From an uncultured bacterium (GTDB lineage: Bacteria; Patescibacteriota; Minisyncoccia; Phycocordibacterales; CAIRYW01), in the NCBI GenBank assembly GCA_963766885.1, contig CAVYBO010000002.1:293048-357047 (forward strand): a DNA stretch of 64,000 nt. Reading direction: 5' to 3'. A program made the translations under genes and the position numbers. Of this stretch, positions 40,068-61,639 are shown one piece after another; positions within the stretch are counted from its first letter, which is position 1; every line of letters begins with the position of its first letter. Below the pieces are notes generated by a model, which saw nothing but the letters and a program-made list of their open reading frames with translations, did not search any database and had not been told where the DNA came from.

Positions 40068-40529
40068 CTATAATCCTGCCATTGTGAGAATTTCCTTATA
40101 ATGCGTTTCTGAAACAGGTTGGACAGAAAGTCTCGATCCTGGAGCCGCGACCCTAATCCCCCTTAGTTTTGGGTTAAATTTTATCTGAGGCAATGTAACT
40201 GGTTTTGCTAATTTCTTTTTGAATTTGATTTGAGCAGCATACCAAATTGGATTTTCTTTTGTCGCTTTTGGATCAAAATGATCATCCCTTTTGTTAAGTG
40301 CTGTCATGTCGAACATAGACGAGCCAGAAATTTCAGCAACGCCTACAACACCTACCACCCCAGCGCTTGAATGGTAAAACAAAACAAGATCGCCAGATTT
40401 CATAGAATCTCTCATAAAATTTCTGGCCTGATAATTTCTGACACCAGTCCAAAGTGTCTGCTTATCCTTGGCAAGATCATCAATTGAATAGGCAGAAGGT
40501 TCGCTTTTAATCAGCCAGTAATTTTTCAT
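40068..40529 (-). CDS. EVE (PUA-like) domain protein
   Basis: 153 aa. MKNYWLIKSEP...WTGVRNYQARNFMRDSMKSGDLVLFYHSS is a near-textbook EVE-domain N-terminus. Confidence 0.85.
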   Translation of the reverse strand: MKNYWLIKSEPSAYSIDDLAKDKQTLWTGVRNYQARNFMRDSMKSGDLVLFYHSSAGVVGVVGVAEISGSSMFDMTALNKRDDHFDPKATKENPIWYAAQIKFKKKLAKPVTLPQIKFNPKLRGIRVAAPGSRLSVQPVSETHYKEILTMAGL

Positions 40530-41843: not shown

Positions 41844-42926
41844 TTACTTTAAAATCCTAACGGCTCCATTATCTGCATCAACTTCCACCAAATCTCCATC
41901 TTTAATTTTCTGCGTTGCGTTTTGCGTACCCACAATGCAAGGTATTTTAAACTCTCTACTTACAATTGCTGCATGAGACATCATACCACCCTGATTTGTG
42001 ACAATGGCAGAAGCCTTTTTGCAAGCCATTAAAAGCTCTGGGGAGGTTGTATCCGCAACCAAAACATTACCCTTTGGCATAGCTGCTAATACAGTCTTCA
42101 AATTTTTAAACAAACTTGGTCCATATTCAATAACTGTGGCTTTTGCTCGAACCTTACCTTTATAAACAGGTATGCCTCTAATTTCTTTTTCATTATGATT
42201 CTTTTTTGAGAAAAATTCATTGGCAATTTTCGAAGCTTCAGATCCATCAAAATAAATGATTTTATTTCCATAACTATAATGAATGTATGCTTTCTTTCTG
42301 TTATTAATTACAACTTGAGGTAATTTCTTACCTTTATACAGATTTAAGATATCTAGCTTTGAGTATCCAAGGATATTTTGAAAAGGAAGGCTAAATTGTT
42401 CAGATATTTTTTTCAAAAACATTATCCTGTGAGAATCTTTACTAAAAAGCAATTTATTCATCCTAAGACGAGCTGTATTTTTTATTTTCTCAAACTGTTT
42501 TAAATTGTCGGCTATAGTTTTGTTGCTATCCTTAAATTGATAGGCTTTATCAACATAAAAGAATTCTGTTTTTGAATAATATTTATGATTATCAGAAAGC
42601 CAATTTAATGCCTGTTTACATTCTGACAAAGAAATTTCTTTTTTCTTTAAAAGATCGTTGAAGAATTTGTCTGCATGATCGTAGTATGAATAAATTTCAT
42701 TTTTGAAATCTGAGAATTTATTTGTGTTTTTAAAAAGCTTAAGTCCGTCATCTAGAGTTTCTTTGATTACTTTTTCTGGTAGAAAAGTTGTCCAGGTATT
42801 ATTTGAAAATACAGCAAGACCATGCAACTTTTTGTAATTTGTCATGAATAAATCAGAGCCGAGATATGAAGTGTTTGTGGTAGAAAAAAGCTGTCTGTAT
42901 TTAGAATAATCTAGTTTTAGATTCAT
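41844..42926 (-). CDS. PEP-utilizing-enzyme mobile (phosphohistidine swivel) domain protein, paralog 5 of a tandem array (RPH-like substrate module)
   Basis: 360 aa. C-terminus EIRGIPVYKGKVRAKATVI ... TNQGGMMSHAAIVSREFKIPCIVGT...DGDLVEVDADNGAVRILK matches PF00391-type GG-x-TSHAAI-ARE-GIP-VVG. The N-terminal approx. 240 aa are paralogous to the other array members. Confidence 0.8.
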   Translation of the reverse strand: MNLKLDYSKYRQLFSTTNTSYLGSDLFMTNYKKLHGLAVFSNNTWTTFLPEKVIKETLDDGLKLFKNTNKFSDFKNEIYSYYDHADKFFNDLLKKKEISLSECKQALNWLSDNHKYYSKTEFFYVDKAYQFKDSNKTIADNLKQFEKIKNTARLRMNKLLFSKDSHRIMFLKKISEQFSLPFQNILGYSKLDILNLYKGKKLPQVVINNRKKAYIHYSYGNKIIYFDGSEASKIANEFFSKKNHNEKEIRGIPVYKGKVRAKATVIEYGPSLFKNLKTVLAAMPKGNVLVADTTSPELLMACKKASAIVTNQGGMMSHAAIVSREFKIPCIVGTQNATQKIKDGDLVEVDADNGAVRILK

Positions 42927-44593
42927 TTGATTATTTTCACAATCCCTTTATCTGCATCAACTTCCACCACATCACCATCTTTTAAAACCTTAGTAGCAAT
43001 TTTTGTGCCAATTATACAAGGCTTCTTTAATTCCCGTGCAACAATTGCGGCATGGCAAGTTATCCCACCCTCATCAGTCACAAAAGCTGCCGCTTTTTTC
43101 ATTGCAGGAAGAAAATCTGGGGTGGTCATTGGAGAAACAATAATGGCATCCACGGGAACACTTTTGACTTGTTCTCTTCTGAATAGTAAGAAAACTTTTC
43201 CTTGAACCTTACCTTTAAAAGCAATGCCTCCTTTAATTTCTCTATTATCTTTTACTATTTCCTTTGAAAGAACTGTACCGATTTGTTCGGCAAAAATATC
43301 TAAACTAGCTTTTCCGTACTTAATACCGTCAACAAGAATATAATCATTTAATCTCTTTTTTAGCTCAACTTTATCCGGAGGGTTAGAAATCTCTGAACTC
43401 AAGATTGTTGTCTCAAAACCTTTAAGATTAGGATAAATATGTAGCAGGGAATTTCGGATTAATTCACTACTAGAAGCAAAAAATGTTTCTTTTTCTCTAA
43501 AACCTTGTGCCAAGGATTTAATAGCCTTAGGAGTCCTTTCATCTATTGCAGAGTAGTAATAAATGAGAAAACCAAACATCAATTTATCTACTTTTTCAAC
43601 AAATTTTTTCAGTTCTGTTTTTTTAGATAAATGTTTTTTATTTAAATACTCTTTCTTTAAAAGAGCGTAGTCTTTCTCAAATTTTTTACCTATCTTTTTG
43701 TAGAATTTATCACTTTTTTTATTCTCCTTGAGTATTTGATCCTTAAGCCATTCTGTACCTGAAATGTTTTCCCAAATCTCTATTGTCCCATTCTTAAAAT
43801 AATGAATTACTAGGGGTTTGTGTGGATTTTTCCAGCCCCAATTTTTTTGTACGTATTGTCGACAAGCTTTACCCCAAGATTCTTGAATTATAATCGTAGT
43901 ATCTCTTGTATATACTTTTTCAAAAACTTCTTTATTTACTTCAGGATTATTGATACCTTTTTTGGAACAAAAATCTGCGAAATTATTCCCATTCAAAATA
44001 TTTTCATCCTCTACAATGTATCCCTGAGAGCGTTTTCGAATTTTTTGCTGATTTATACTTTTACCTTTTAATAATTGTTGGATTTCCTTATATGAAATTA
44101 TATGTTTCAAGTTTTTATTTATATTGCTCTTCTTCAATAAAGAATTAACTGTATCTTCTATTTTTGAGTCAAAAGAATACAAAATTCCTTCTGACAAAAC
44201 TCTTGAATCCCAAGCTTCTGGAATTGCTTTTACAAATCGATCACTGACAACAAAAATGTAGAAAGACATTATCTGGCCAATTAATCTGAAGATATTTTCT
44301 AAGTTTTCAGAAGTAACATTAATTTTTTTTAATTTATTTATACTGCTGATAAATTCCGAATTCAACTCTTTGAAAAGTTTTTTATTATCAATTATCTTCC
44401 CCGTAATAATCTCTTTAAAATATTTGAAGTCATTATTGGAATGGTAAAAATTAACTTTTTCACCATCATAATGAAAAATCACAGGGTAGTACCAATCTAA
44501 GGACTTTTTTAAATATTTACCATATCCTTGTTGCCAGGCCTGCACTGAAAATAGACTTAAATCTCTTTTAACTGTTGGCTTAAGTTCCTTCAT
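42923..44593 (-). CDS. PEP-utilizing-enzyme mobile-domain protein, paralog 4
   Basis: 556 aa. C-terminus EIKGGIAFKGKVQGKV ... TDEGGITCHAAIVARELKKPCIIGTKIATKVLKDGDVVEVDADKGIVKIIK. 4-nt overlaps with both neighbours. Confidence 0.8.
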   Translation of the reverse strand: MKELKPTVKRDLSLFSVQAWQQGYGKYLKKSLDWYYPVIFHYDGEKVNFYHSNNDFKYFKEIITGKIIDNKKLFKELNSEFISSINKLKKINVTSENLENIFRLIGQIMSFYIFVVSDRFVKAIPEAWDSRVLSEGILYSFDSKIEDTVNSLLKKSNINKNLKHIISYKEIQQLLKGKSINQQKIRKRSQGYIVEDENILNGNNFADFCSKKGINNPEVNKEVFEKVYTRDTTIIIQESWGKACRQYVQKNWGWKNPHKPLVIHYFKNGTIEIWENISGTEWLKDQILKENKKSDKFYKKIGKKFEKDYALLKKEYLNKKHLSKKTELKKFVEKVDKLMFGFLIYYYSAIDERTPKAIKSLAQGFREKETFFASSSELIRNSLLHIYPNLKGFETTILSSEISNPPDKVELKKRLNDYILVDGIKYGKASLDIFAEQIGTVLSKEIVKDNREIKGGIAFKGKVQGKVFLLFRREQVKSVPVDAIIVSPMTTPDFLPAMKKAAAFVTDEGGITCHAAIVARELKKPCIIGTKIATKVLKDGDVVEVDADKGIVKIIK

Positions 44594-45999
44594 TGAATTA
44601 ATTTAACAATCCCTTTATCTGCATCGACTTCTACTAAATCTCCATCTTTGAGAATTGAAGTAATTCTAGGAATTCCAACTATTGAGGGAATATTAAGCTC
44701 TCTAGTAATAACGGAAACATGGGCAGTTATTCCTCCTTCTTCTGCTAAAACCGCAGAAACCTTGTGAAGTATGGGGACAAAATCTGGACTGGTATTATGA
44801 ACCACCAAAATATCTCCTTTCTCGACTTTTTTAAATTGTTCCGGCAATAAGACGATTTTTACCCTTCCTTTGGCTTTACCCTTACAAGCAGATCTGCCTT
44901 TTATTTCCTTATTTGCATCTGCTTTAGGCTCAATATATTTATTAATGAAATCTTCTGCTTTATCTCCAGAAATATAAAACTTATATCCTTTCGGCTTAGC
45001 AACAAAAACAATAGTTTTTTTGTAAAGATTTAATTTATCTTTTGAAAGTTTTTTACCCTTAAGAAGATTAATTAGATCTTCATGCATTAGATTTTTCAAT
45101 TGGCCAACAGGAAGACCTATTTGTTTGGAAGCAATTTTCCATAATTTTTCAAATTCAAACTGCGCTTTATTTATATAGAACTTGTAACAATCTTTCATCC
45201 AAGAAGTCTCACCAATCAACTTTAAAATGACTTGGTCTCCAGAATATTTCTTTAAGTATCCATTGAGCTCTTTTAACCTAGATTTGTGTTCTGAAATAAT
45301 TTTTTTCTTGATAATCTCTGGCTTTTCTTTTTTGAGAGCATCTAGTCTTTTTTTGTAATATCCGTATGTTCGTGGTTGTTCGTCGTAATAACCGAGAGTT
45401 ATGTGTTTGTATGAATTAAATATTTTATTTAATTCTAATGATAAATCTTTCTTTGGGTTGTTTTTAATCTTAAGCACTAAATCACACAAAGCAATCTCTT
45501 CTTCGGCAAAAAAACTTAATCTATTCGAAACATTACAAGCAGAAAGAATATTTACTGATTCGCTTCCGAACTTATCAGTTATTTTATTAATTATAGCTTT
45601 ATCAATTTTTCTAAGATATGTAGCCGTGTGATGCATATACTCAAAAAGATCAAAGCAACTTGCAAATGACTTTGAAAGAGATTTGCTTGGGTCTGATTCA
45701 TTAATACAAATATTTTGGATTTTTGTTGAAAGGGTTTTTATCTCCTTTTCCAGAGACTTCATTCCACCTGGTTTAGATAGTCTTTCAAAAGCTGAATTTA
45801 TTATTTTAGGAATAAATGAAAGATAAAGTTTAAAAGAAGTATTTTTAAATACAACTACTCCAGGAAGATCTAGGCTCCACGAACCTTCTTTTGCCAAATA
45901 ATTATAAAGAACATTGGCAACCCAAAGATAACTTGCCCTTCCTGCTTCGTATTGAATTGGAACTTTTTCAATATCTTTTTCAAAATTTTTAATATCCAT
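44590..45999 (-). CDS. PEP-utilizing-enzyme mobile-domain protein, paralog 3
   Basis: 469 aa. C-terminus EIKGRSACKGKAKGRV ... EEGGITAHVSVITRELNIPSIVGIPRITSILKDGDLVEVDADKGIVKLIQ, with the His retained in an AH context. Confidence 0.8.
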   Translation of the reverse strand: MDIKNFEKDIEKVPIQYEAGRASYLWVANVLYNYLAKEGSWSLDLPGVVVFKNTSFKLYLSFIPKIINSAFERLSKPGGMKSLEKEIKTLSTKIQNICINESDPSKSLSKSFASCFDLFEYMHHTATYLRKIDKAIINKITDKFGSESVNILSACNVSNRLSFFAEEEIALCDLVLKIKNNPKKDLSLELNKIFNSYKHITLGYYDEQPRTYGYYKKRLDALKKEKPEIIKKKIISEHKSRLKELNGYLKKYSGDQVILKLIGETSWMKDCYKFYINKAQFEFEKLWKIASKQIGLPVGQLKNLMHEDLINLLKGKKLSKDKLNLYKKTIVFVAKPKGYKFYISGDKAEDFINKYIEPKADANKEIKGRSACKGKAKGRVKIVLLPEQFKKVEKGDILVVHNTSPDFVPILHKVSAVLAEEGGITAHVSVITRELNIPSIVGIPRITSILKDGDLVEVDADKGIVKLIQ

Positions 46000-46001
46000 A
46001 A

Positions 46002-47012
46002 TTATTTAAGAATTTTCACTATTCCCCTATCTGCATCCACTTCCACTAAATCTCCGTCTTTCAAAACCTTTGTCGCTATCTTAGTACCAACAATGCAAGG
46101 CTTTTGAAGCTCTCTTGCAACAATTGCAGCATGACAAGTTACACCGCCCTCATCTGTAATAAAAGCTGAGGCTCTTTGCATGGCAGGAAGAAATGATGTT
46201 CTTGTCATTGGACTAACTAGAATGTCTCCATCACTAACATTTACTAAATCATTTTCGTTAGTAATGATAATCACTTTACCTGAAACTTTACCTTTGAAAG
46301 CTGGGTTTCCTTTAAACTCAGAAATATTCTCATCAATTTCATTCTTGATATTTTTTAGAAATTCTTTGGTATAGGCTACAGCCTCTTCTCCGATTAATAA
46401 GCGTGCTTTTCCTGCTATCGATTCTATAACGTATTGCTTTTGCCTTAGGGTTAATAAACCTGCATCAAGATTTAAAGATACAATTTCATCAGGTAGAGCG
46501 TATTTGAGTAGCTCGGTATCAATATTCAAAGTTTCTGAAATCTGTTTATATAACTTTGGAAGAAATTCCGAAGTTGCTATATGCTGCGCGCTTTTCGTTC
46601 CTCTTAAGTCCGAAATCATATCAATCGACTCTTGGTCTGTGACATAAAATCCCAGGAAAAAAGAAGTAATCTCATGGATCCATAACTGTCTAAATATTTT
46701 CATGAATTCCTCTCTGTTTTCAAGAGGATCTTTTTCAAAAAAAGGAAATACTAACTCTTCGTATTTTTTAAATCCTTTCAGAAGCTCCAAAAAACTTCCT
46801 GCTTTTGCTAGATTTTCAAATCCATCTAATTCTTTCTGATCCACATACCTTTCCATGATGCCATGCTTACCTAAGACAATCGTATCCAGGTTAAAACCAC
46901 CCTCTTTTATAGGAAAATTTGGATATACTTCAGTAGCTAACCATATTTCGAAAAGTCCAAACACTCTCGTTGCCACAAGATTCCAAGCTCTATTTTCATC
47001 AGTATTATCCAT
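46002..47012 (-). CDS. PEP-utilizing-enzyme mobile-domain protein, paralog 2
   Basis: 336 aa. C-terminus EFKGNPAFKGKVSGKV ... TDEGGVTCHAAIVARELQKPCIVGTKIATKVLKDGDLVEVDADRGIVKILK. Confidence 0.8.
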   Translation of the reverse strand: MDNTDENRAWNLVATRVFGLFEIWLATEVYPNFPIKEGGFNLDTIVLGKHGIMERYVDQKELDGFENLAKAGSFLELLKGFKKYEELVFPFFEKDPLENREEFMKIFRQLWIHEITSFFLGFYVTDQESIDMISDLRGTKSAQHIATSEFLPKLYKQISETLNIDTELLKYALPDEIVSLNLDAGLLTLRQKQYVIESIAGKARLLIGEEAVAYTKEFLKNIKNEIDENISEFKGNPAFKGKVSGKVIIITNENDLVNVSDGDILVSPMTRTSFLPAMQRASAFITDEGGVTCHAAIVARELQKPCIVGTKIATKVLKDGDLVEVDADRGIVKILK

Positions 47013-47015
47013 ATT

Positions 47016-48527
47016 TTAAGAAGATTTATTTTTGATTATTCTTACTATTCCTTTGTCTGCATCCACTTCAACCATATCACCATCTTTCAGAATTTTAGTA
47101 GCAATCTTGGTGCCAATGATACAGGGCTTCTTCATTTCACGGGCAATTATAGAGGCATGACAAGTGACACCGCCCTCATCCGTGACAAAGGCGGCCGCTT
47201 TCTGCATCGCCGGTAAGTAATCAGGACGAGTCATAACAGCAACCAAAACATCACCAGTCTGAACTTTATAAATTTCCTCAACACTCTCAATTATTTTTAC
47301 TTTACCCCTGACAATACCTTTGCTCGCTACAAATCCTTTTAATTCTTGATTTCCTTTCTTATATTCTCCGGTACCGATGCGATCCAGTTTTTCAATCAAA
47401 GGTAAATCAGTTGTAACATCATATTTGCCCTTAACCCAGAGAATAATGCAGTAGTTTATTCTTCTATCCAATTCTTTAGTGTCTATCTTTTCATTTAAAA
47501 CTGCTTCCATTTCTGGAGGAAAAGCATACTTCAATTGTTCCAAAGAATATTTGGTTCTTTTTGATATTTCTTCAAGCAGTTTACTGAAGTAGTGCGTTGC
47601 CCAGAAAGTTCCCTTTTTACGTTCATCCTGCCACCAGTTGAAATCGTCCGTGATTGCAAGCAAAGTGATTTCTTCTTTGGGTAACATAAGCGTTTTGATA
47701 AGGTGTAATTTTTGTTTCTTGTGATCCGAAGCAATTGATTTAATTTCATTTATTTTCTTATCGATTCCTTTAACATCAAGTTTCAGGTATTGATTAATTC
47801 TTTTTTCAAAAAATTCCTCTGTAAGAATATTATCCTTAACATAATTGTTTTGAGTCCAGAAATAATTTTTCTGATGTTTTTTAATAAGAGGATTTTTAAG
47901 TTTTGGATTTGCTTTTACTTTCTTTGCGACTTTTAGTAGCTCAATATCTTCTAACTGTAGGAACGATGTAAAAATTGGAGACGTTAGGATTCCGAAATAT
48001 TCTACAAACCTATTTTCCAATCCTTTGCTTTCAAGAAAGGTTTTAATTTTTGAAGCAATCAATGTGTCAGTACTTAAAGTAAAACCGTCAATTAATCCGG
48101 AGCTGTTCAATTTCTTGGTGTAAATATCAGCCAAACTATTATATTTATCCAAAAGTTCTTTCTTGCTTAAAGAACCGAGGTCAAGACTGTTTAATTTTAA
48201 GCAGTCCTTATAAAACCTTTCTTGCCAAGGCATAAAGTTACTAATCATCTTTCTACTAACTTTAGGATCTTTTTTTGAAGCTTTGATTATTTTGGAAGTT
48301 GTATATTCAAGCTCACCCAAATTGTGATACCAATCCGCTCTATGCTTTGAAAAACCGGCGTATGCAATTCTTTGACCATATTGGTACTTAGTTCTCTGAA
48401 TAGATGATATATGCGAATCACCTAGGAAAAACATAAAGTGGGGACAAGCATCAAATCGTTGCCTGTACCAAAGACTTTTTTCTATCTCCGGCAATCTTGA
48501 TTGTAGTAATTTAGAGTACTTAATCAT
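47016..48527 (-). CDS. PEP-utilizing-enzyme mobile-domain protein, paralog 1
   Basis: 503 aa. C-terminus ELKGFVASKGIVRGKV ... TDEGGVTCHASIIAREMKKPCIIGTKIATKILKDGDMVEVDADKGIVRIIK. Confidence 0.8.
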   Translation of the reverse strand: MIKYSKLLQSRLPEIEKSLWYRQRFDACPHFMFFLGDSHISSIQRTKYQYGQRIAYAGFSKHRADWYHNLGELEYTTSKIIKASKKDPKVSRKMISNFMPWQERFYKDCLKLNSLDLGSLSKKELLDKYNSLADIYTKKLNSSGLIDGFTLSTDTLIASKIKTFLESKGLENRFVEYFGILTSPIFTSFLQLEDIELLKVAKKVKANPKLKNPLIKKHQKNYFWTQNNYVKDNILTEEFFEKRINQYLKLDVKGIDKKINEIKSIASDHKKQKLHLIKTLMLPKEEITLLAITDDFNWWQDERKKGTFWATHYFSKLLEEISKRTKYSLEQLKYAFPPEMEAVLNEKIDTKELDRRINYCIILWVKGKYDVTTDLPLIEKLDRIGTGEYKKGNQELKGFVASKGIVRGKVKIIESVEEIYKVQTGDVLVAVMTRPDYLPAMQKAAAFVTDEGGVTCHASIIAREMKKPCIIGTKIATKILKDGDMVEVDADKGIVRIIKNKSS

Positions 48528-49549
48528 TTTAGTGTTGTAATGGGCCTGCTTTGAGTAATATAGAATTTTCTTTTCTCATATGCCCATTCGATATCACAAG
48601 GGAAATCGTAGTGATTTTCTATTTTTAAGATGAGATCTGAAAATTTCAATATTTCTTTGATAGAAAGGCATTGCTCATTAGCTTTTTTATTTGGGATGTT
48701 TTTCCAAACGTTGCCTCCAGTGGATTTTCTAAATAGCCCTTTTGATTTTTCTGAAACATTTACATCAATGATATTCCTTGGTTCTTTTTCAATTACATAG
48801 CTGTCTGGGGTGATTTGTCCAGAAACAATAGCTTCTCCGAGTCCCCAAGAGGCTTCAATGATCATTTGATTTCTATCTTCCGTAACAGGATGAACAGAGA
48901 AGACGATTCCTGATTTTTCACTATTTACCATTTTTTGGACTACTACAGCCACAGAAATATGAGTATCATTTAATCCTTTTTCAAATCGATAAAATATAGC
49001 TCTCGGGGTAAAAAGTGAAGCAAAACATCTTTTGATATTTTCTTCCAGATTTTTACTTGTTGTATTGAGAAAACTATCTAGTTGACCAGCCCAAGCATGC
49101 ATTGCCCCATCCTCTGCCGTGGCACTTGAACGGACAGCAACAAACTTTGCATTTAATTTCTTAAATGAAGTTTTTACTTCTTTCAGCATTTCTTTGGGCA
49201 TTTTTGCCTCAAGAATCATTTCTTTGATATCTTCGGAAGCTTTTTCAACTTCTTCCATTTCCTTATGGTTTATCTTGTCCAAAATTGCATCAATTTCTTG
49301 AGTTAGATCATTTTCGGATAGAAAGTATTCAAAAGAGCTTGAAAGTATTACAAATCCTGGTGGAACTGGGATTTTGGCATTTATCATTTCACCCAAAGAT
49401 GCCCCTTTACCACCGGCTATTGGAGAGTCGTTTTTGCCCAAATCCTTGAAAAATTTGATGTATTTCACACCAATATTATGCAGTAAATTCACATTATTAT
49501 AAAGGCTAAGAATAAGGCGTCTCGGGCGCAATAACCTAGCTCGTGTCAA
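48524..49549 (-). CDS. Stand-alone PPDK_N-type ATP-binding (ATP-grasp, pyruvate phosphate dikinase / PEP synthase / rifampin phosphotransferase N-terminal) domain protein
   Basis: 341 aa. VKYIKFFKDLGKNDSPIAGGKGASLGEMINAKIPVPPGFVI ... DIEWAY...ITQSRPIT matches the PF01326 start and end. No swivel or TIM-barrel domain. The true start may be an internal GTG (VNLLHNIGVKY), as the annotated N-terminal 25 aa are encoded by a GC-rich patch. Confidence 0.8.
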   Translation of the reverse strand: MTRARLLRPRRLILSLYNNVNLLHNIGVKYIKFFKDLGKNDSPIAGGKGASLGEMINAKIPVPPGFVILSSSFEYFLSENDLTQEIDAILDKINHKEMEEVEKASEDIKEMILEAKMPKEMLKEVKTSFKKLNAKFVAVRSSATAEDGAMHAWAGQLDSFLNTTSKNLEENIKRCFASLFTPRAIFYRFEKGLNDTHISVAVVVQKMVNSEKSGIVFSVHPVTEDRNQMIIEASWGLGEAIVSGQITPDSYVIEKEPRNIIDVNVSEKSKGLFRKSTGGNVWKNIPNKKANEQCLSIKEILKFSDLILKIENHYDFPCDIEWAYEKRKFYITQSRPITTLK

Positions 49550-51453: not shown

Positions 51454-52278
51454 CTAAACAAATTTTTGATTGTTTAATATTAAGTTATAAATCTCTGAAA
51501 GAAAATGTGCAAAAGATAATTCATCCATTATATAAGAAGATGGATGAGCGCAACTATTTCTTATATCAAAAAGATGTAAGATTGCTTGAAGTTGATTTAA
51601 ATCTAGAGAAATCATACCGGAAATTATAATAGTTAGGTCTTTTTCAAAAACCTCTTGTAATTCATTTTCAATTTTAATATTAAATTCTTTATTAAATTTT
51701 TTATAAAATCCAGACTGACTTGCTTTTAGTTTTTTTGATGTTGAGTTGAAACTAGCAAAACCTTTTTTTATTACAAAATCACGAAGTCTATCGACAACGG
51801 CACATCCTGCCATAACAGTCGCTGCTTTATAACATTGATTTTTTGCAGCCCTAAAAGCTTCTTCGTAGTATTGTCTTTCATCATTCGAAGTAATCTTTAC
51901 AAGAATTTTTTGAGATATACCTTCCCAAACCATCGGCGAGGAGCGCCCAGTTCTAATCATCGGGATCAAAATATCTCTCTGTATATTTTTTCTTAAGGGA
52001 CTCAAAAGCGCAATGTATGAACTTTTTCTGTTATTAGCAGTTGACATTTGGATCATCTTTTCCATTACTGAATCTACTTTGTTTATCTCTTCGTCAGAAA
52101 TAACAGACTCTTTTCTTATTTTGGTCGAAAACTCCTCAAACCAACGGCTTGAAAGATTAGATATTTTATCTTTAAGATTTTTTTGAGAGATAAAAGCAGA
52201 TTTGTTTGCTCTTATCTTGTTTACTACATCATCGACATACGTTAGATAGGTCTCAAGTTCCTCTATTATTTCTTTCAT
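51454..52278 (-). CDS. Putative HEPN-domain protein (Rx4H motif), abortive-infection-like
   Basis: 274 aa. C-terminal LHLFDIRNSCAHPSSY contains R-x4-H in the context typical of HEPN RNase motifs. Otherwise alpha-helical. Confidence 0.45.
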   Translation of the reverse strand: MKEIIEELETYLTYVDDVVNKIRANKSAFISQKNLKDKISNLSSRWFEEFSTKIRKESVISDEEINKVDSVMEKMIQMSTANNRKSSYIALLSPLRKNIQRDILIPMIRTGRSSPMVWEGISQKILVKITSNDERQYYEEAFRAAKNQCYKAATVMAGCAVVDRLRDFVIKKGFASFNSTSKKLKASQSGFYKKFNKEFNIKIENELQEVFEKDLTIIISGMISLDLNQLQAILHLFDIRNSCAHPSSYIMDELSFAHFLSEIYNLILNNQKFV

Positions 52279-52286
52279 TTAATTTC

Positions 52287-52889
52287 CTAAGAGGCAAGCT
52301 CTTTTACCAAATCTGCAGCTAACTTTTTACCAATTGGAGAAAGTTTGTTTGTTGTTCCAGGTTTAAATCCAGCAAAAATTTCTTTCATTGCTTTAAGATT
52401 TGTTGTAAAATTTGCAGCGTCATATGTACCATAAGTCACACACATTTCTCTAAGCTCCTCAGTTGGGACATCAAAAGAGCCCTCCATAAATTGATGTCTT
52501 ATTCCTATAAGCAATGCAAGATTTTTTTGTCTTCGGCTAGTTTTATTAGATTTAAGATCAGTGACTTCAATACTTATATTCCCTAATTCATCTATACTAA
52601 AAACTTTACGGATTAAATCATCACTAATACCGTTTGGGGTTGTAAAGACTTTTATTCTTTTGTTTACTTCATTAGGAATATCTGATACACCCGCAACAAT
52701 AGTATCAGTTATTGAAACCGGAGGTTTATGAGATTCTCCTTTTAGCAAAGAATTTAAGAGAATTTCGAAGCATTTTTCCTGAAGGTTTTGGGGGCACAAT
52801 TTAACTAGTTCAAGAATTTCCTTTAACTCTTTTTTAAAATCATCTTTTTGCATGGCTAAAATAATAACACAAATTTCTTTATAGGCCAA
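52287..52889 (-). CDS. Hypothetical protein (200 aa), in an operon with the flanking defence-like genes
   Basis: 8-nt gap to the downstream HEPN gene. No known domain. Confidence 0.4.
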   Translation of the reverse strand: MAYKEICVIILAMQKDDFKKELKEILELVKLCPQNLQEKCFEILLNSLLKGESHKPPVSITDTIVAGVSDIPNEVNKRIKVFTTPNGISDDLIRKVFSIDELGNISIEVTDLKSNKTSRRQKNLALLIGIRHQFMEGSFDVPTEELREMCVTYGTYDAANFTTNLKAMKEIFAGFKPGTTNKLSPIGKKLAADLVKELAS

Positions 52890-52958: not shown

Positions 52959-54359
52959 TTAATATCTTGTATCTACATAATATCCATTCCTACCATTGCA
53001 AGGATAGCCATCTTTAGTTTTATGGGGACTTAATGTCACATTACCATATGTGCTTCTAGTAAAGCGTCTACCACAATAACTACATTCATAAATATATTTC
53101 GGACCAGAAAAACTTCTCGCTATAACAGATCTATGTCTTGCCGCACGAAATGGTTTGTTTATATCAAAAAAATAAGGATTTTCTGGTCTTTCTCCGGATT
53201 TGGATAACTCTATTTGATATCGAGGAATAAATTTTTCTTCTGTGTTTACTATCCCTTCAACTTTATCTGCAACAAAACATCTTACACCGACTCCGCTACC
53301 ACCACTAAGATTATAGGCGTAAAAATACTCCCGTTGAGATCCGTCCTTGCGTTGCATATATTTTAGCGAGTATGGTTCAATCATTCTATCTGAATCTGTG
53401 TAACGGATTTTCAAAAGAGTTTGTTCTCTTGCACCTTTCATTATTACTGCACGCGCCTCAGGACTGAAATATACAAACTGAGCATACCCGTTGTCGGTAT
53501 AAATACCAAAAAGAGATTCAACGTCAGATACAAAAGATGTGATAGCATCTTCTACATCAATAAAAAGTTGTTTTGCACAGACTATACCTTTTACCCAATA
53601 GGTTCTGAAATAATCAAAAGCTGTCATCTTCAGTACATCTTTTAACGCGTAAGGATTTCTTTCAAAAATGGTCTTTTTTACAAAGGTTTGTACCACCTCC
53701 TCTTTATTCAAGTTTCCTCCTAACAACCGGATTGAGTGGACATAGTCAAACAAATCTGGAGCATGCTGTCTTTGCATTAAACATTTTAGTTTTGTTGCAA
53801 TTATCTCCTCAAGTTTCATACACCTGATCTTACATACGACCTCAGCAGCATCAGAATAAGGATGAATAAGATAAACATCTTGTATATCGAGAAGAACTTT
53901 ATCGAATCTAGTGATATCCATCGATATCTTTATTTTCATATGATCTGATCCTCCATTAAAATCCTTAAAATAGATTCGTGCTTCATATACTTTCAAGCCA
54001 GGTATTGGGGCTTCGGCTGCTGCAAACTTTTCTTCAATTTTATTATCTTCTTTAACAAAAGTTATACCTGCTTTTTCCTGAATAAAATCACAAACCTTAT
54101 TGATTTCACCCAATAGTAAATTTTGATCAATATCACCCATGATTCCAAAATCTAAGTCTGAAGAAAATCGAGTATTTTCAAAATACCCTTTACGAAGAGC
54201 ATTTCCTCCTTTTAGAAAGATCTCATTTTTTAGATCACTTATTGTGAAAAGGCCAAAAAGAAACCAGCCAAATAGATAATCCCTTTCGACGTTGGTCGGG
54301 TGAATCTCAAATTCTTTTGATTTCGCTTCAATTTCGTCTCTTAGAATCATAACCGCCAT
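52959..54359 (-). CDS. AbiEii/DUF1814-type nucleotidyltransferase fused to a WYL domain and C-terminal zinc ribbon
   Basis: 466 aa. NTase core FLKGGNALRKGYFENTRFSSDLDFG (AbiEii KGGTAL...RFSEDIDF-like pol-beta fold). WYL-like LLKIRYTDSDRMIEPYSLKYMQ...REYFYAYN...VRCFVADKVEGI. C-terminal YECSYCGRRF...CNGRNG. Confidence 0.7.
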   Translation of the reverse strand: MAVMILRDEIEAKSKEFEIHPTNVERDYLFGWFLFGLFTISDLKNEIFLKGGNALRKGYFENTRFSSDLDFGIMGDIDQNLLLGEINKVCDFIQEKAGITFVKEDNKIEEKFAAAEAPIPGLKVYEARIYFKDFNGGSDHMKIKISMDITRFDKVLLDIQDVYLIHPYSDAAEVVCKIRCMKLEEIIATKLKCLMQRQHAPDLFDYVHSIRLLGGNLNKEEVVQTFVKKTIFERNPYALKDVLKMTAFDYFRTYWVKGIVCAKQLFIDVEDAITSFVSDVESLFGIYTDNGYAQFVYFSPEARAVIMKGAREQTLLKIRYTDSDRMIEPYSLKYMQRKDGSQREYFYAYNLSGGSGVGVRCFVADKVEGIVNTEEKFIPRYQIELSKSGERPENPYFFDINKPFRAARHRSVIARSFSGPKYIYECSYCGRRFTRSTYGNVTLSPHKTKDGYPCNGRNGYYVDTRY

Positions 54360-54430: not shown

Positions 54431-55121
54431 CTAAGATAGCCAAGTGATACCATCTTTGTCTATTCGTGCCGAATTAATCGGTAATCCTATGTCTGGCGTG
54501 CCAGCGTCAATTTCAAGTTGTACAAGAAATCTCGCTCCTTTTTCTGTCGAAATGATACTCCCGGTACCATGTTTTTTTAGATATTCTTGAATTACTTTAG
54601 CGTGGCCAAGATAAAAAATATGTCTACCTGCAAGTCGCTCTGTGTCAATAATTAGTTCTCCTTTTTCATTTAACTTTGCAGCGAAACGAATAGCGATAGT
54701 AGAAGGCCCATCCATTCTCCCAATGAGCAAGAATGACACATGTTCCTTTCTTATCACCTTCAGTTTCATTTTTAAAAACATCTGGTTCATTAGTTTTAAT
54801 TTTAAGTAAGAATTTCTTAAGCGCTTCCGAAATATTTGTTTCTAATTTATTAATTGTACTAGGAACTGTCTGACCATCCTGTATGGAAGCTTCAACTATT
54901 TTAGCTACATCAAAATCCCCACCGTGATGTTTTACCAAACCACTTACCCCGAAGAGATTGTCTTTATATTCAAAAAGTTTTTTTACTTCACTTTGACTTT
55001 TTTGTTTTCCTCCACCAACAAAAGTACCCATTCCGTCAGCTGCAATTACAACCATTTGAGAATTTTGAATTGCAACAATAGTTGTTCCATAACGTATTGT
55101 TTTTTTGATTTTTTTTATCAT
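54431..55121 (-). pseudogene. HslV / proteasome-beta-like Ntn hydrolase with a 12-aa propeptide, split across two frames (frameshift or sequencing error)
   Basis: Frame 1 (55121-54666): MIKKIKKTIRYG|TTIVAIQNSQMVVIAADGMGTFVGGGKQ...[26 protein letters not shown] aligns with HslV [21 protein letters not shown]...[23 protein letters not shown]. Frame 2 (54790-54431) continues with HVSFLLIGRMDGPSTIAIRF..., proteasome-like. The two frames overlap by 125 nt. Confidence 0.6.
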
Positions 55122-55163: not shown

Positions 55164-55838
55164 TCAATTTTCTTCAATATTTTGTAGTAGTTTACTCATA
55201 AGAGTAAAAACCCTATCGAAATTCTTCTTCGAATCTAATTTAGTTTTTTGTCCTATCGGTACTAAAGATTTAATAACCCTTTTCATTTCATTTCGAAATT
55301 TTGAGTTTGTTTTATTCCCCGAATGCTGAATTATATTTCTTATAGAATTTAAAACATTAAAATAATGCCCCTGTTTATCATCTTTAAAGACTTTAATATT
55401 AAATTTTTCTAATAAAAATTTTTTCCACTCTTTGATTTCGTAGGATTTATTAATAGCAAATGCATCAATAAAATATTCTTTTACTTCCTCAACATTAGAA
55501 AAATCTTTTACGTCATCATATGTTGCCACTTTATCAGAAGAGTAGGACTCAGGATATTTAACAAAAAGCTCTTTCAAAAACTCAAACATAAAACATTCAA
55601 AATTAGAGAAAAAGGCAACAAAACCCAATTCGTAGAGTTTATCAATCTGTTTTGGATCTACTTCAAGTAAATCCTTAAATTTTTCATAATCAGGTCGCGT
55701 CTTTGCTTTTGTATAGTTCAAAAATTCTTGAGTGGCAATCGTTTGAGCTTCTAGTGCACGTATAAGTTTATAGGTAGCCTGAAGTTCACCCTTTAGATTT
55801 ATTACTGAATCAAATTTATTTAAGTTTTTTATAGTCAC
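55164..55838 (-). CDS. Putative HEPN-domain protein (Rx4H motif)
   Basis: 224 aa. C-terminal NVLNSIRNIIQHSGN contains R-x4-H. All-alpha. Confidence 0.45.
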   Translation of the reverse strand: MTIKNLNKFDSVINLKGELQATYKLIRALEAQTIATQEFLNYTKAKTRPDYEKFKDLLEVDPKQIDKLYELGFVAFFSNFECFMFEFLKELFVKYPESYSSDKVATYDDVKDFSNVEEVKEYFIDAFAINKSYEIKEWKKFLLEKFNIKVFKDDKQGHYFNVLNSIRNIIQHSGNKTNSKFRNEMKRVIKSLVPIGQKTKLDSKKNFDRVFTLMSKLLQNIEEN

Positions 55839-57048: not shown

Positions 57049-57834
57049 CTAGTTTAACCTATTAACAATTTGATTAAGAAAATCTCTAGTCTGCGAATCC
57101 ACAGCACCATAATCAGTATTTATCGGCGTCCTTGTAATGACATTCTCGTAAACATCAGCAAAATCTTCTGAGGGAGAAGAAGCATAACTTTCAGTAGGAT
57201 CATTTCCATCATCGTCTTCTAAGGGCATATTTGCAGGTATACCTCTAAGTGCATAATATTCTTTCCATTCTTGAGCTGTTAAAGTACCTGCAACAGCATG
57301 GCCGAGTTCGTGTGTAAGATCTCCTGCAAAATTATTGTTTAACACAATTTTGTTTATGTATATCAATGACTGACCGCTTCTATATCTGCTATATGAAGCC
57401 CCTTCTGAAAGCCACATCGTATTTAGAGGTGGTAGCTTAGCGGATAAGCCGTTGCTTGGCTCGATGATGTATTGATTATCTGAGTATGCCAAACTATTGA
57501 CAATAATTATCGGAATATTTTTTAACATACTCTCAGGAAATTTTGCATTGTAAACAATTTGAGTAATCTGATTTTTTAAATCGTCAGTTAAGTCATTTGT
57601 ATTCGGGTAATCTATTTGTCCTAGATAAAAAGTGTAGCCGAGATTATTTACCTGTTCTAAAGGAATTTGATTAGATGATGAGGGGTTTGATTGTTTTTCA
57701 GAAAGATTGTTTACAAAAGCGTGTAGTTCATAGCAAAAAGTTTGCGTTGGACAGTCTGTAATTCTCCATTGAAAGAAGATATATGTTCCGATTAACAGAA
57801 TAAAAATTATTATGAATGAATATGTATTTTTCAT
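57049..57834 (-). CDS. Secreted/membrane-anchored putative zinc metallopeptidase (HExxH)
   Basis: 261 aa. N-terminal signal anchor and LTHELGHAVAG motif. Confidence 0.5.
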   Translation of the reverse strand: MKNTYSFIIIFILLIGTYIFFQWRITDCPTQTFCYELHAFVNNLSEKQSNPSSSNQIPLEQVNNLGYTFYLGQIDYPNTNDLTDDLKNQITQIVYNAKFPESMLKNIPIIIVNSLAYSDNQYIIEPSNGLSAKLPPLNTMWLSEGASYSRYRSGQSLIYINKIVLNNNFAGDLTHELGHAVAGTLTAQEWKEYYALRGIPANMPLEDDDGNDPTESYASSPSEDFADVYENVITRTPINTDYGAVDSQTRDFLNQIVNRLN

Positions 57835-58035
57835 TTTTTAAACGCAAAAAGCCCACCACATAGGTGATTGCTTTCGCAACCCATATCGGTTTCCCAATAT
57901 GACCAGTAACGGTGACCCCATATGATGGGTTCTTTATTCGTTACTGGTTTTTTGCCATGCCATTAAAAATTAATGGTTTAGGCCCTATTTAGTTGTAAAG
58001 AAATTATAACCCAAACTTTTAAAAATTACTCCTTC

Positions 58036-59201: not shown

Positions 59202-59978
59202 ATGAAAAAGAAAAGTGAATACGTAAAAATTATTATTTCAGGAAAAAATTTAGAAACATATGAATACGAACGAAAACCAAACCCTATCAGACGGAGAAAT
59301 AGAAGAAAAAGCAAAGATACTGATGGTGATGAGAATCTGGGAGTTAGTGGACAAGATACATTTTCGGAAAGAAAGCTGGGGAAAAGACAAGATCACGCAC
59401 GACACGCTGGTATGGATTTCCGAAGGCTTGTTACATCTAACCTTGTCGGAACTGAACTTCCTGTACTCGTTACTCTTACCTATAAGGAAAACATCACCGA
59501 TATCAGTGTCGGATACAAGGACTATCGGTCTTTTATCCAGTCTCTCCGCTATAAATACGGAAAAGTTTTCAGGTACGTCTGTGTCCCAGAATTTCAAGGG
59601 CGTGGTGCCGTTCATTTTCACGCTTTGTTCTGGGGGCTACCCGCTGAATTATTTTTACATGAACGAAAAACTCGTCTCCTCGCAGGAATATGGGCAAAAG
59701 GATTTGTTTACGTAAAGTTTACTGATGGTCACGAAAAAATATCTTCTTACTTATCAAAATATATGCAAAAAGCTTTTATTGATCCAAGATTAAGAAATCA
59801 AAAGGCCTATGTGGCCTCTAGAAATATAAAGCGTCCATATGTAAAATCGGGCTCTTTTTCTGTTTCCTATATCATTGACGATTATGTTGGTGATGACAGC
59901 TCTCCTGTGATAGATAAGACCTACGACACTAAATGGCTAGGTAAATGTAGGTATCGGGTATTCAAGGCTTCCAATTAA
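59202..59978 (+). CDS. Rolling-circle replication initiator (HUH endonuclease; phiX174 gpA / Microviridae VP4-like Rep)
   Basis: 258 aa. Motif II KVFRYVCVPEFQGRGAVHFHALFWG (HUH) and motif III SYLSKYMQK (YxxKYxxK catalytic Tyr), with the spacing typical of superfamily I Rep proteins. Confidence 0.75.
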   Translation: MKKKSEYVKIIISGKNLETYEYERKPNPIRRRNRRKSKDTDGDENLGVSGQDTFSERKLGKRQDHARHAGMDFRRLVTSNLVGTELPVLVTLTYKENITDISVGYKDYRSFIQSLRYKYGKVFRYVCVPEFQGRGAVHFHALFWGLPAELFLHERKTRLLAGIWAKGFVYVKFTDGHEKISSYLSKYMQKAFIDPRLRNQKAYVASRNIKRPYVKSGSFSVSYIIDDYVGDDSSPVIDKTYDTKWLGKCRYRVFKASN

Positions 59979-60003
59979 TAAATAAAAGTGATTATATAAT
60001 GCT

Positions 60004-61518
60004 ATGAAATACATACTTTACTGCCGAAAATCAACAGAATCAGAAGACAGACAGGTTCTATCATTAGAATCCCAAAGAAAAGAACTCTTGGATTTGGCAA
60101 AATATGAAGACCTTGAAATTATTCTGACTCTTGAAGAAAGCAAATCGGCCAAAGAGCCAGGCCGTCCTATTTTTAACGAAATGCTTCAGATGATTTCTTC
60201 AGGAAAAGCAGATGCTATTCTCTGTTGGAAAATTGATCGTCTCACAAGAAATCCTGTTGATGGCGGACAAGTACAATGGCTTCTTCAAAACGGAATGATT
60301 AAACACATAAGAACTTTTGAAAAAAGTTTCTATTCTAACGATAATGTTTTGCTTATGGGTATTGAACAGGCTATGGCTAATCAATACGTTATAGATTTAA
60401 GTCTGAATGTTAAAAGAGGTCATCGTACAAAACTTGAAAAGGGCGACTGGCCTAATAAAGCTCCTTTTGGATATATCAACGATAAAGTCAGCAAAACTAT
60501 TAAGATTGATAAAAAATTTGGCTCATATGTTTTTAGAGCCTTTGAATTATATTCAACAGGTGGATACACGTTAAAACAAATTTCAGATATTTTGTATCAA
60601 GAAGGAATGAGAACAAAAACTGGAAATAAGATTAAGAAGAGCCAAATTCACAGAATTCTACACAATAAGCTTTACTGTGGCTTGATGGAGAAAGACGGAA
60701 AAACATATCATGGCAATCATGAAGCATTAATCTCTGTTTCTCTATTTAATAAAGTTGATGATGTTTTGCATGGCAGGCATCATCCTCGTCCAAATATACA
60801 CTTCTATTCTGCACGTGGATTTCTATCTTGTGCTTCTTGTGAATGTACTTTAACTACTGATACAAAAAAAGGTTACATTTATTATTACTGCACTAATGGC
60901 AAAGGAAACTGTGAGCAACATAAAAAATATCTAAGATCGGAAATGATTGATTCTCTTCTTTCAAGTATGTTCAAGGAACTGGCCTTTGACAAAGAGTTGA
61001 TTGAAATGGCTGCAGAAGCCTATAAAGAGAGAAATGAGCTCAAAAACGACTATACTGCTTCAAGCATAGAAAACCTCTCTAATGAGCTTAATTCTCTTCT
61101 GGAAAAAGAATCTGCCCTCGTAGATGGATATAGTTCTAAGATAATACGTGAAGAAGTTTATAGAGCCAAGGTTCAGGAAATACAAAACAAACGCATAGAA
61201 ATTGAGAAACAAATCAAAGAAACTGAAGCTAAAGGCGGAATAAGTAAAGTCACTTTCGAACAGATCAAAAATGTCTTTTTAGATAGTAGTAGAGCCTCAG
61301 AAACGTATTTGGAACTTACGGAAGAAGAAAAGAGAAAGATGCTAGAAAAATTACTTTCGAACGCTTCTATAGAAAACCAAAAAATCGTTAAATACCAATT
61401 CAAAAGTCCATATCAGATACTTGCAAATACCTCAAAAAATACCGATTTGGAAACACTACTGCGGGACCTGGATTCGAACCAAGATACCCTGCTCCAGAGG
61501 CAGATGTCCTACCATTAG
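60004..61518 (+). CDS. Large serine recombinase (resolvase/invertase catalytic domain + recombinase + zinc-ribbon + coiled coil)
   Basis: 504 aa. N-terminal YCRKSTESEDRQVLSLESQ (catalytic Ser), DRLTRN, and a downstream Cys cluster (CASCEC...CTNGKGNC). The last approx. 20 codons overlap tRNA-Gln on the opposite strand, so the true C-terminus may be shorter. Confidence 0.85.
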   Translation: MKYILYCRKSTESEDRQVLSLESQRKELLDLAKYEDLEIILTLEESKSAKEPGRPIFNEMLQMISSGKADAILCWKIDRLTRNPVDGGQVQWLLQNGMIKHIRTFEKSFYSNDNVLLMGIEQAMANQYVIDLSLNVKRGHRTKLEKGDWPNKAPFGYINDKVSKTIKIDKKFGSYVFRAFELYSTGGYTLKQISDILYQEGMRTKTGNKIKKSQIHRILHNKLYCGLMEKDGKTYHGNHEALISVSLFNKVDDVLHGRHHPRPNIHFYSARGFLSCASCECTLTTDTKKGYIYYYCTNGKGNCEQHKKYLRSEMIDSLLSSMFKELAFDKELIEMAAEAYKERNELKNDYTASSIENLSNELNSLLEKESALVDGYSSKIIREEVYRAKVQEIQNKRIEIEKQIKETEAKGGISKVTFEQIKNVFLDSSRASETYLELTEEEKRKMLEKLLSNASIENQKIVKYQFKSPYQILANTSKNTDLETLLRDLDSNQDTLLQRQMSYH

Positions 61519-61529
61519 ACGATCCCGCA
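61459..61529 (-). tRNA. tRNA-Gln (anticodon CUG)
   Basis: Minus-strand sequence TGCGGGATCGTCTAATGGTAGGACATCTGCCTCTGGAGCAGGGTATCTTGGTTCGAATCCAGGTCCCGCAG folds into a cloverleaf. 7-bp acceptor with U1-A72, D-loop AATGGTA, anticodon loop CTCTGGA (U33, CUG, G37), T-loop TTCGAAT, discriminator G. CCA not encoded. Confidence 0.85.
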
Positions 61530-61639
61530 AAATATTCAAGGAATACAAAAAAGCTGTTGTCAGCTTTTGAACCTATAGATTAGCGTTTTTTGGGTAAAAA
61601 ATCAAAAGCTGTGGATTTGTAATAAAGGAATAAGTGGTA

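Follow-up and report, generated by a model that had tools for sequence, protein, structure and literature searches.

A solo AbiEii-type nucleotidyltransferase with a fused WYL domain and zinc module in a Patescibacteriota genome

Introduction

How can an enzyme that resembles an AbiE toxin be encoded with no antitoxin gene at its side? The question is posed by a gene on the minus strand of a 64,000-nucleotide (nt) stretch of DNA from an uncultured Patescibacteriota bacterium (lineage CAIRYW01; assembly GCA_963766885.1, contig CAVYBO010000002.1, positions 293,048 to 357,047), the whole of which is called the window below. The gene, at window positions 52959-54359, encodes 466 amino acids (aa), which an initial annotation made from the letters alone read as an AbiEii-type nucleotidyltransferase (NTase) fused to a WYL sensor and a zinc ribbon and lacking an AbiEi partner, which the fusion could, it was suggested, replace. 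Both the open reading frame (ORF) and the sequence motifs quoted at the time are present as described. What activates AbiE and MenT toxins in infected or stressed cells is recognized as an unanswered question (discussion of preprint 10.64898/2026.01.19.700257), and a ligand-sensing domain wired to a toxin whose antitoxin is gone would make a simple single-gene system for asking what signal controls the toxin. Here we conclude with high confidence that the gene is a stand-alone ("solo") member of an old AbiEii/DUF1814 subfamily in which the NTase, the WYL domain, a linker and a zinc module are permanently fused.

The NTase domain appears catalytically intact

Along the protein, an AbiEii/DUF1814 NTase is followed by a WYL domain, a disordered basic linker and a C2HC zinc module, an identity and architecture of which we are nearly certain. 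The database homologues number 773, more than 120 of them full length at 64-73% identity, and a full-length AlphaFold model built on 43 homologues has a mean predicted local distance difference test score (pLDDT) of 80.6 and a predicted template modelling score (pTM) of 0.72. Residues are called invariant here on the basis of an alignment of 43 full-length homologues, supplemented by comparison with the sister clade described below. The motifs quoted by the initial annotation map to aa 50-55 (KGGNAL), 64-71 (RFSSDLDF), 327-332 (IEPYSL), 343-350 (REYFYAYN) and 359-370 (VRCFVADKVEGI), and C426-x2-C429...H446...C454 is also present. An identical gene occurs in an independent public assembly, where the start is called at M4 (position 54350) to give 463 aa; as a Shine-Dalgarno-like GAGGGG motif lies 4-5 nt ahead of the first ATG at 54359, either start is possible.

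The assignment to AbiEii was correct, the matches being far stronger than chance would produce. Pfam AbiEii (PF08843) matches aa 32-231 with an E value of 6.9e-24 (85.5 bits, cutoff 22.5), the best PADLOC AbiEii model matches with E=3.6e-47, and Foldseek searches with the AlphaFold model recover the MenT3/MenT4 fold (MenT4, 6y56, E=7.1e-9; MenT3, 7c46, E=2.7e-8). The set of residues expected of a pol-beta-type enzyme is complete, comprising GG, DxD, a third Asp (D148) and the K...R...D of motif IV. Within aa 50-70, G51-G52 forms motif I, R64 takes the position of the gamma-phosphate Arg, S66 that of the phosphoacceptor, and D68 and D70 are the catalytic pair. All of K50-G51-G52, R64, S66, D68, D70, D148, K190, R197, D202 and D205 are invariant among the 43 homologues, the same catalytic residues are kept in the distant sister clade, and the motifs align with "KGGTSLRK...RFSTDLDF" and "AEKL...ARDLYD" of MenT4. 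The loss of catalytic Asp residues that the initial annotation had allowed for is therefore not seen. Conservation of this extent, across the 43 homologues and the sister clade, implies selection for an active enzyme; the catalytic centre is intact, and the enzyme looks active.

Characterized relatives indicate what these residues may do. In the AbiEii of Streptococcus agalactiae, R63 coordinates the gamma-phosphate of the nucleotide, and antitoxin-induced auto-phosphorylation of T65 turns the toxin off (preprint 10.64898/2026.01.19.700257). R64-F65-S66 of the solo protein corresponds to R63-S64-T65 of that AbiEii, a match by sequence position only. MenT1, MenT3, MenT4 and AbiEii all extend tRNA by nucleotides placed on its 3'-CCA end, which blocks translation (preprint 10.64898/2026.01.19.700257).

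The C-terminal tail comprises a WYL domain, a basic linker and a zinc module

A Pfam scan of the whole protein reports no WYL domain. When the C-terminal region is scanned alone, aa ~302-367 match Pfam WYL (PF13280) at 14.2 bits against a cutoff of 21.8 (E=0.044), a sub-threshold match that still spans profile positions 4-67 of 70. A separate AlphaFold model of aa 291-466 has a pLDDT of 87, with values above 90 in the barrel; a helix at aa 300-312 and the strands that follow it within aa 314-376 are likewise predicted at pLDDT >90. The full-length model agrees with it in placing five strands behind the helix. In the PDB, ranks 1-18 for this model are all WYL proteins, namely CapW (7tb5, 9c5g), DriD (7tzv, 8tp8, 8tpk, 9cu3, 9pfv) and BrxR (7qfz), with probabilities of 0.99-1.00 and, for most of the 18, a root mean square deviation of 2.2-3.8 Å over 85-95 columns. 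Sm/Hfq proteins rank next. Several of the matched WYL entries are complexes with single-stranded DNA (ssDNA), and the closest solved relatives of the fold are ssDNA-bound DriD and CapW.

When 1.84 billion representatives were searched with a C-terminal profile, 805 proteins (50%-identity clusters) were retrieved at E<=0.001, and distant relatives among them (P0254, P0260 and P0263; E~1e-21 to 1e-24) pass the Pfam WYL threshold at 23.7-41.7 bits. The solo clades lack the canonical R-x-Y-R-x-D-R-I strand of WYL domains, which explains the weak Pfam score. Because the structural matches and the relatives above threshold agree, we regard aa 298-380 as established to be a WYL domain on modeling and profile evidence, as the initial annotation had supposed. 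No helix-turn-helix (HTH) family was matched in profile scans and no WCX domain is present; after the WYL domain come the linker and the zinc module. Among 150 representatives of the WYL-zinc module, every recognizable N terminus is AbiEii and none carries another effector domain, which implies that the tail is integral to this enzyme.

The region that follows the barrel begins with a conserved acidic segment, in which K387, E390, E393 and Y396 are specific to the solo clades. It continues into a linker whose length varies across the alignment and which has pLDDT values below 50 at aa 392-416. The proposal of a terminal zinc ribbon holds in part. A zinc module is indeed present, with C426, C429, H446 and C454 invariant in both the solo and the sister clades, but the putative metal ligands are Cys-Cys-His-Cys and not those of an all-Cys ribbon. 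The module is modeled as strands only (pLDDT 93-96), without the helix of a C2H2 finger. Its matches to Pfam zf-C2H2 and Zn_ribbon_8 are sub-threshold and its PDB profile matches to C2H2 fingers have per-domain E values of 0.006 or more, and for this reason we call it a C2HC zinc module and place it in no named family. Streptomyces copies (L061, 8001-9248; plasmid hit H3) have 415 aa and stop after the basic linker, without the zinc module, so the module can be lost in some lineages.

No AbiEi gene accompanies the solo NTase

To define the neighborhood of the gene, 65 loci from reference genomes that carry relatives at 36-75% identity were fetched with ~8 kb on each side, and four genes per side were compared. 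Many of the solo loci have a co-oriented upstream gene at a gap of -17 to +80 nt. In Pfam searches, none of 33 such upstream genes matched an AbiEi family, and the same held for 40 further flanking genes, of which 36 lie downstream and 4 upstream in divergent orientation. A hidden Markov model (HMM) built from four genuine AbiEi proteins was also run against 5,185 ORF segments from the window and 71 fetched loci, where even at E<=10 it recovered only its four training sequences. The absence of an AbiEi partner, as first proposed, is thus borne out for the window and the loci compared.

Other partners were sought as well. The 33 upstream genes are unrelated to one another, encoding a racemase, a vitamin transporter, DUF6804, PLD, RelA/SpoT, a PDDEXK nuclease, ThiF, a peptidase M48 and others, and no upstream family recurs in more than 4 of the 65 loci. 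A divergent AbiEi in this position is therefore rejected, the upstream gene being proteasome-like and free of HTH similarity in the window, of unrelated families elsewhere, and without any AbiEi match. All-versus-all BLAST of four genes per side across the 65 loci gave clusters that spanned at most 11 loci, none of them holding a constant position, which disposes of a conserved protein partner of any kind. The downstream ORF that the initial annotation had put forward as an AbiEi candidate has no match in Pfam, NCBIfam, PADLOC or the AbiEi HMM and no HTH similarity; it occurs only in the window and in locus L001, is not conserved beside solo genes, and is dismissed as AbiEi. Within the loci examined, the gene is truly solitary.

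A sister clade with the same fusion retains AbiEi

The same NTase-WYL-zinc architecture is found in a sister clade that shares 26-31% identity with the solo clade. This clade is the group of distant relatives that score above the Pfam WYL threshold, and it has catalytic, WYL-core and zinc-ligand residues in common with the solo proteins. Here a tightly coupled AbiEi gene, encoding 261-287 aa, is present in all four loci examined and either overlaps the toxin gene by 4-8 nt or lies 4 nt upstream of it. In three metagenomic loci a gene for 273-287 aa stands directly upstream, with a 4-nt overlap in two and a 4-nt gap in the third; two of these genes match Pfam AbiEi_4, and all of the sister-clade upstream genes are mutually homologous. 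On a plasmid of Rhizobium sp. CB3090, WP_283060973.1, which RefSeq annotates as "AbiEi family antitoxin", precedes a 474-aa protein, WP_283060974.1, annotated there as "AbiEii/AbiGii toxin". In contrast, copies at ~38% identity carried by plasmids of Sphingomonas and Sinorhizobium have no such partner.

The presence of both the fusion and AbiEi in the sister clade implies that the fusion predates antitoxin loss and can coexist with the antitoxin, and that the tail is by itself no replacement for it. The proposal that the fusion replaces AbiEi is therefore not supported in the form in which it was made, the only part of the initial interpretation of which this is true.

A comparison of 29 solo with 12 paired sequences shows where the clades differ. 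Basic residues R303, R311 and K317 are conserved only in the solo proteins, a solo strand "EYFYxY" stands where the paired clade has "LLLxAV", and an acidic segment "SKAGExPENPY" (aa 386-396) stands where the paired clade has a Pro-rich segment. The sister-clade WYL domains have the canonical R-x-Y-R-x-D-R-I motif and score above the Pfam threshold. That the solo-specific changes are related to life without AbiEi is speculation.

Relatives are widespread, long resident and located in islands

Full-length relatives occur in many lineages of the candidate phyla radiation (CPR)/Patescibacteria, in Omnitrophota, Bdellovibrionales, Bacteroidota, Planctomycetes, Proteobacteria, Verrucomicrobiota, Acidobacteriota, Actinobacteria and Chloroflexota, and in one Methanosarcinales bin. 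Within the main solo clade, protein identity is 58-75%, while the GC content at third codon positions (GC3) of the gene ranges from 0.16 to 0.73 and tracks that of the flanks (r=0.82). Such proteins in genes that follow their hosts in composition imply long-adapted copies under strong purifying selection, and a recent horizontal sweep is rejected as the main cause of the high identity. Neither 50,697 phage genomes nor IMG/VR contigs contain a relative, and a phage-borne gene is rejected for these collections.

Recurrent neighbors include large serine recombinases (8 loci), tyrosine integrases, XRE regulators, a LexA-methyltransferase fusion, TraG/TraD-like proteins, Toprim/primase, Shedu and several HEPN families, as well as PLD, RelA/SpoT and methyltransferases. 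The solo gene thus sits in mobile or defense islands. The clade is large, with the 805 clusters noted above for the tail alone, and extends from minimal-genome CPR bacteria to Proteobacteria, Bacteroidota and Planctomycetes. Because AbiEi and AbiEii are required together by current defense-finding rules, the solo gene would be missed by them, and it is an overlooked and probably common module of mobile islands.

The tail may act as a sensor that gates the enzyme

We tentatively propose, with somewhat less than even confidence, that the tail is a sensor of single-stranded nucleic acid by which the toxin is gated, making the gene a one-gene abortive-infection or stress module. By analogy with MenT1/3/4 and S. 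agalactiae AbiEii, the NTase would add nucleotides to the 3'-CCA of tRNA and stop translation. The WYL-linker-zinc tail would bind single-stranded nucleic acid in the manner of the DriD and CapW WYL domains, and this binding would couple the activity of the enzyme to the appearance of such nucleic acid, such as intermediates of phage or plasmid replication or products of damage. A protein that is off by default would need no separate antitoxin, and the outcome would be an abortive-infection or stress toxin encoded by one gene.

Several points weigh against this proposal. Activity, toxicity, ligand and target are inferred for all members of the group. AlphaFold gives no confident docking of the tail on the active site, aa 392-416 being the stretch with pLDDT below 50 mentioned above. 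The sister clade has the same tail and yet keeps AbiEi, so that possession of the tail is not enough to render the enzyme harmless. The search for AbiEi reached ~8 kb per side, and an unlinked antitoxin may exist. Finally, the solo WYL domain is without the canonical strand, and its ligand may differ from ssDNA.

The main rival reading, which we hold to be somewhat less likely, is that the tail is no switch but recruits the substrate. The barrel, basic linker and zinc module would then hold a single-stranded 3' end and set specificity for a tRNA or for a foreign RNA or DNA end, and the enzyme may be constitutive on a non-essential or foreign target, hence the lack of an antitoxin. Occurrence of the tail both with and without AbiEi fits such a subfamily-wide accessory role in catalysis. 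Among the representatives compared, the module occurs on AbiEii NTases alone, while sensor domains usually join many partners; the Sm/Hfq proteins that follow the WYL matches are RNA binders; and the solo clades gained the basic or aromatic residues R303, R311, K317, Y345 and Y349. Set against these points, the characterized MenT and AbiEii toxins modify tRNA although they have no tail of this kind, the solved WYL domains nearest to this one sense ssDNA allosterically, and the island context suggests functions in conflict. Less likely again is a conventional toxin whose neutralizer is unlinked or unrecognized, be it an AbiEi homologue encoded elsewhere in the genome, a host Ser/Thr kinase-phosphatase acting on S66, or the variable upstream gene. 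The tight coupling of that gene at many loci would suit it, as would the invariant S66, two residues past R64, since phosphorylation is a known off-switch of AbiEii and MenT1/3 and the lack of a COG5340 partner does not mean the lack of phosphorylation (preprint 10.64898/2026.01.19.700257). The upstream genes nonetheless come from unrelated families of limited recurrence, and hosts that range from CPR to Actinobacteria and an archaeal metagenome-assembled genome argue against one host-specific factor.

A built-in antitoxin in the C-terminal region, with the solo-specific acidic segment as the candidate replacement for AbiEi, seems improbable to us. It draws on the fact that AbiEi is lost only in clades with specific changes around the WYL domain, for instance the acidic SKAGExPENPY (K387, E390, E393), and that AbiEi itself neutralizes through an acidic loop (D85/E86) reaching into the active site (preprint 10.64898/2026.01.19.700257). 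The resemblance to that loop is, however, one of composition only, the model gives the segment low confidence and does not dock it, and the sister clade has AbiEi alongside the very same fusion. Equally doubtful is an elaboration in which the solo clades constitute a one-polypeptide type VII system: the acidic segment would stand in for the acidic loop of AbiEi, enter the active site and trigger auto-phosphorylation of S66 in cis, single-stranded nucleic acid bound to the remodelled WYL-zinc tail would pull the segment off, and a phosphatase or newly made protein would restore activity. If true, it would directly show how AbiE-type toxins are triggered. That the protein is a catalytically inactive DNA-binding regulator which keeps only the shape of an NTase is hardly credible: WYL proteins are most often transcription factors (PMC4012209) and the zinc module and basic linker could bind DNA, but none of the catalytic residues varies even between distantly related members, no HTH is detected, and there is no conserved neighboring gene to regulate.

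The solo protein differs from two-gene AbiE systems and from WYL regulators

The AbiEi-AbiEii (AbiE) and MenA-MenT systems (DUF1814/COG2253 toxins; type IV, now proposed type VII) share with the solo protein the NTase family, the fold, the motifs and the R-x-S/T position, and nucleotide addition to tRNA 3'-CCA is the activity that all would presumably have in common. In contrast to AbiE, there is no AbiEi/COG5340 partner, and the protein has 466 aa where ~290 are usual, the ~175 extra C-terminal residues being the WYL domain, linker and zinc module. By all the criteria of sequence and fold that were applied, this is an AbiEii/DUF1814 enzyme; as the antitoxin was looked for and not found, it is not a member of a two-gene AbiE system.

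With the WYL regulators DriD, CapW, BrxR and PafBC the solo protein shares the WYL barrel, which superposes at 2.2-3.8 Å in most of the matches described above, and their WYL domains bind ssDNA as an activating signal, according to the titles of PDB entries. Those four proteins are transcription factors of winged HTH-WYL-WCX architecture that control other genes, whereas here the WYL domain is fused to an enzyme without HTH or WCX. The solo protein thus carries the domain without being a transcription factor of this type.

The domain fusion itself has been on record since 2014, when Makarova et al. noted WYL as a ligand sensor and listed an "AbiGII-like nucleotidyltransferase (DUF1814)" among the enzymes fused to it (PMC4012209). 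That entry is a single line, without the zinc module, the distinction between paired and solo forms, or experiments. A full-text literature search found no other paper linking WYL and DUF1814 and no functional study. Nothing known is overturned; the new points are that a strongly conserved clade lacks the antitoxin, that the fusion includes a zinc module, and that fusion came before antitoxin loss.

Features of the window

The features of the gene and of its surroundings are collected in Table 1. A low-GC stretch of the window contains the gene. The rolling-circle Rep, the large serine recombinase and the tRNA-Gln at 59202-61530 look like the right end of an integrated element and bound this stretch on one side. 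A search for a second attachment site through repeats of the tRNA-Gln region gave nothing longer than 13 nt, and the left boundary was not found.

Table 1. Coordinates of the solo gene, its domains and other features of the window
Feature	Position	Strand	Basis
EVE-domain protein	40068-40529	-	Pfam, E=2.4e-49
Six tandem genes, several with 4-nt overlaps; GC 0.29-0.36	41844-49549	-	
Weak RiboL-PSP-HEPN match	51454-52278	-	E=8e-4; precomputed PF27235 AF_1680 match
Downstream 200-aa ORFan	52287-52889	-	No Pfam/NCBIfam/PADLOC match; no AbiEi HMM match
Whole gene, AbiEii-WYL-Zn protein, 466 aa	52959-54359	-	ORF list, public gene call, 773 homologues
Stop codon	52959-52961	-	
Small, beta-rich C2HC zinc module (predicted), aa 420-466	52962-53102	-	Invariant ligands, model
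Acidic segment SKSGERPENPY, then Arg/Ser/Pro-rich disordered linker, aa 381-419	53103-53219	-	pLDDT, alignment
WYL domain, aa 298-380: one helix and five-stranded Sm-like barrel	53220-53468	-	AlphaFold, PDB matches, Pfam
DUF1814/AbiEii NTase core and helical C-terminal subdomain, aa 1-290	53490-54359	-	Pfam, PADLOC, Foldseek
Motif IV, aa 185-205: E185..K190..R197..D202-L-F-D205	53745-53807	-	Invariant in both clades; MenT4 alignment
aa 50-70, KGGNALRKGYFENTRFSSDLD: motif I, R64, S66, D68/D70	54150-54212	-	Invariance, MenT4 alignment
Alternative start	54350	-	
Upstream gene, 229-aa proteasome/HslV-like (Ntn hydrolase) protein	54431-55121	-	L001 comparison, weak Pfam Proteasome match
Weak CARF-HEPN Csx20-like match	55164-55838	-	PADLOC, E=1.5e-4
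261-aa protein, HELGH metallopeptidase-like motif	57049-57834	-	
Complete LOOT RNA	57866-57984	-	Rfam RF03000
Rolling-circle Rep (REP_ORF2-G2P)	59202-59978	+	Pfam
Large serine recombinase	60004-61518	+	Pfam Resolvase, Recombinase, Zn_ribbon_recom
tRNA-Gln, overlapped by recombinase 3' end	61458-61530	-	ARAGORN, Rfam

Compared with the independent assembly L001, the upstream proteasome-like gene has one additional T that breaks it into two ORFs, which is either an assembly error or a real pseudogene. Both HEPN-type matches are to near neighbors and sub-threshold, and they are consistent with a defense-island setting. Co-oriented ORFans and short gaps suggested an integron cassette array; this was rejected, as the 8-85-nt gaps of the co-oriented run contain no R'/R'' core motifs and no attC-like hairpins.

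A complete LOOT RNA (91.4 bits against a gathering score of 46.4) heads the co-oriented gene run that contains the NTase, and the surrounding 201-nt gap folds far better than shuffled sequences (z=-4.2). LOOT is also above threshold close to the solo NTase in three other Patescibacteria loci (L027, 7753-7871, minus strand; L023, 865-982, minus strand; L015, 10351-10475, plus strand), and in L027 it lies ~130 nt upstream of the solo NTase in divergent orientation. It was not found in 14 further CPR loci or in 9 non-CPR loci, which rules it out as a general RNA partner; the co-occurrence with the NTase looks island- or lineage-level.

In the Omnitrophota locus L004, two fluoride riboswitches (3907-3981 and 5914-5977, plus strand) stand directly downstream of the solo NTase, a placement that is probably coincidental. 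Within the window, the array of six tandem genes is an unusual set of paralogues, one with a PPDK_N (ATP-grasp) domain and five with the "mobile" domain of phosphoenolpyruvate-utilizing enzymes. The 261-aa protein has an N-terminal hydrophobic segment and no family match, and the EVE-domain protein is encoded just outside the low-GC stretch.

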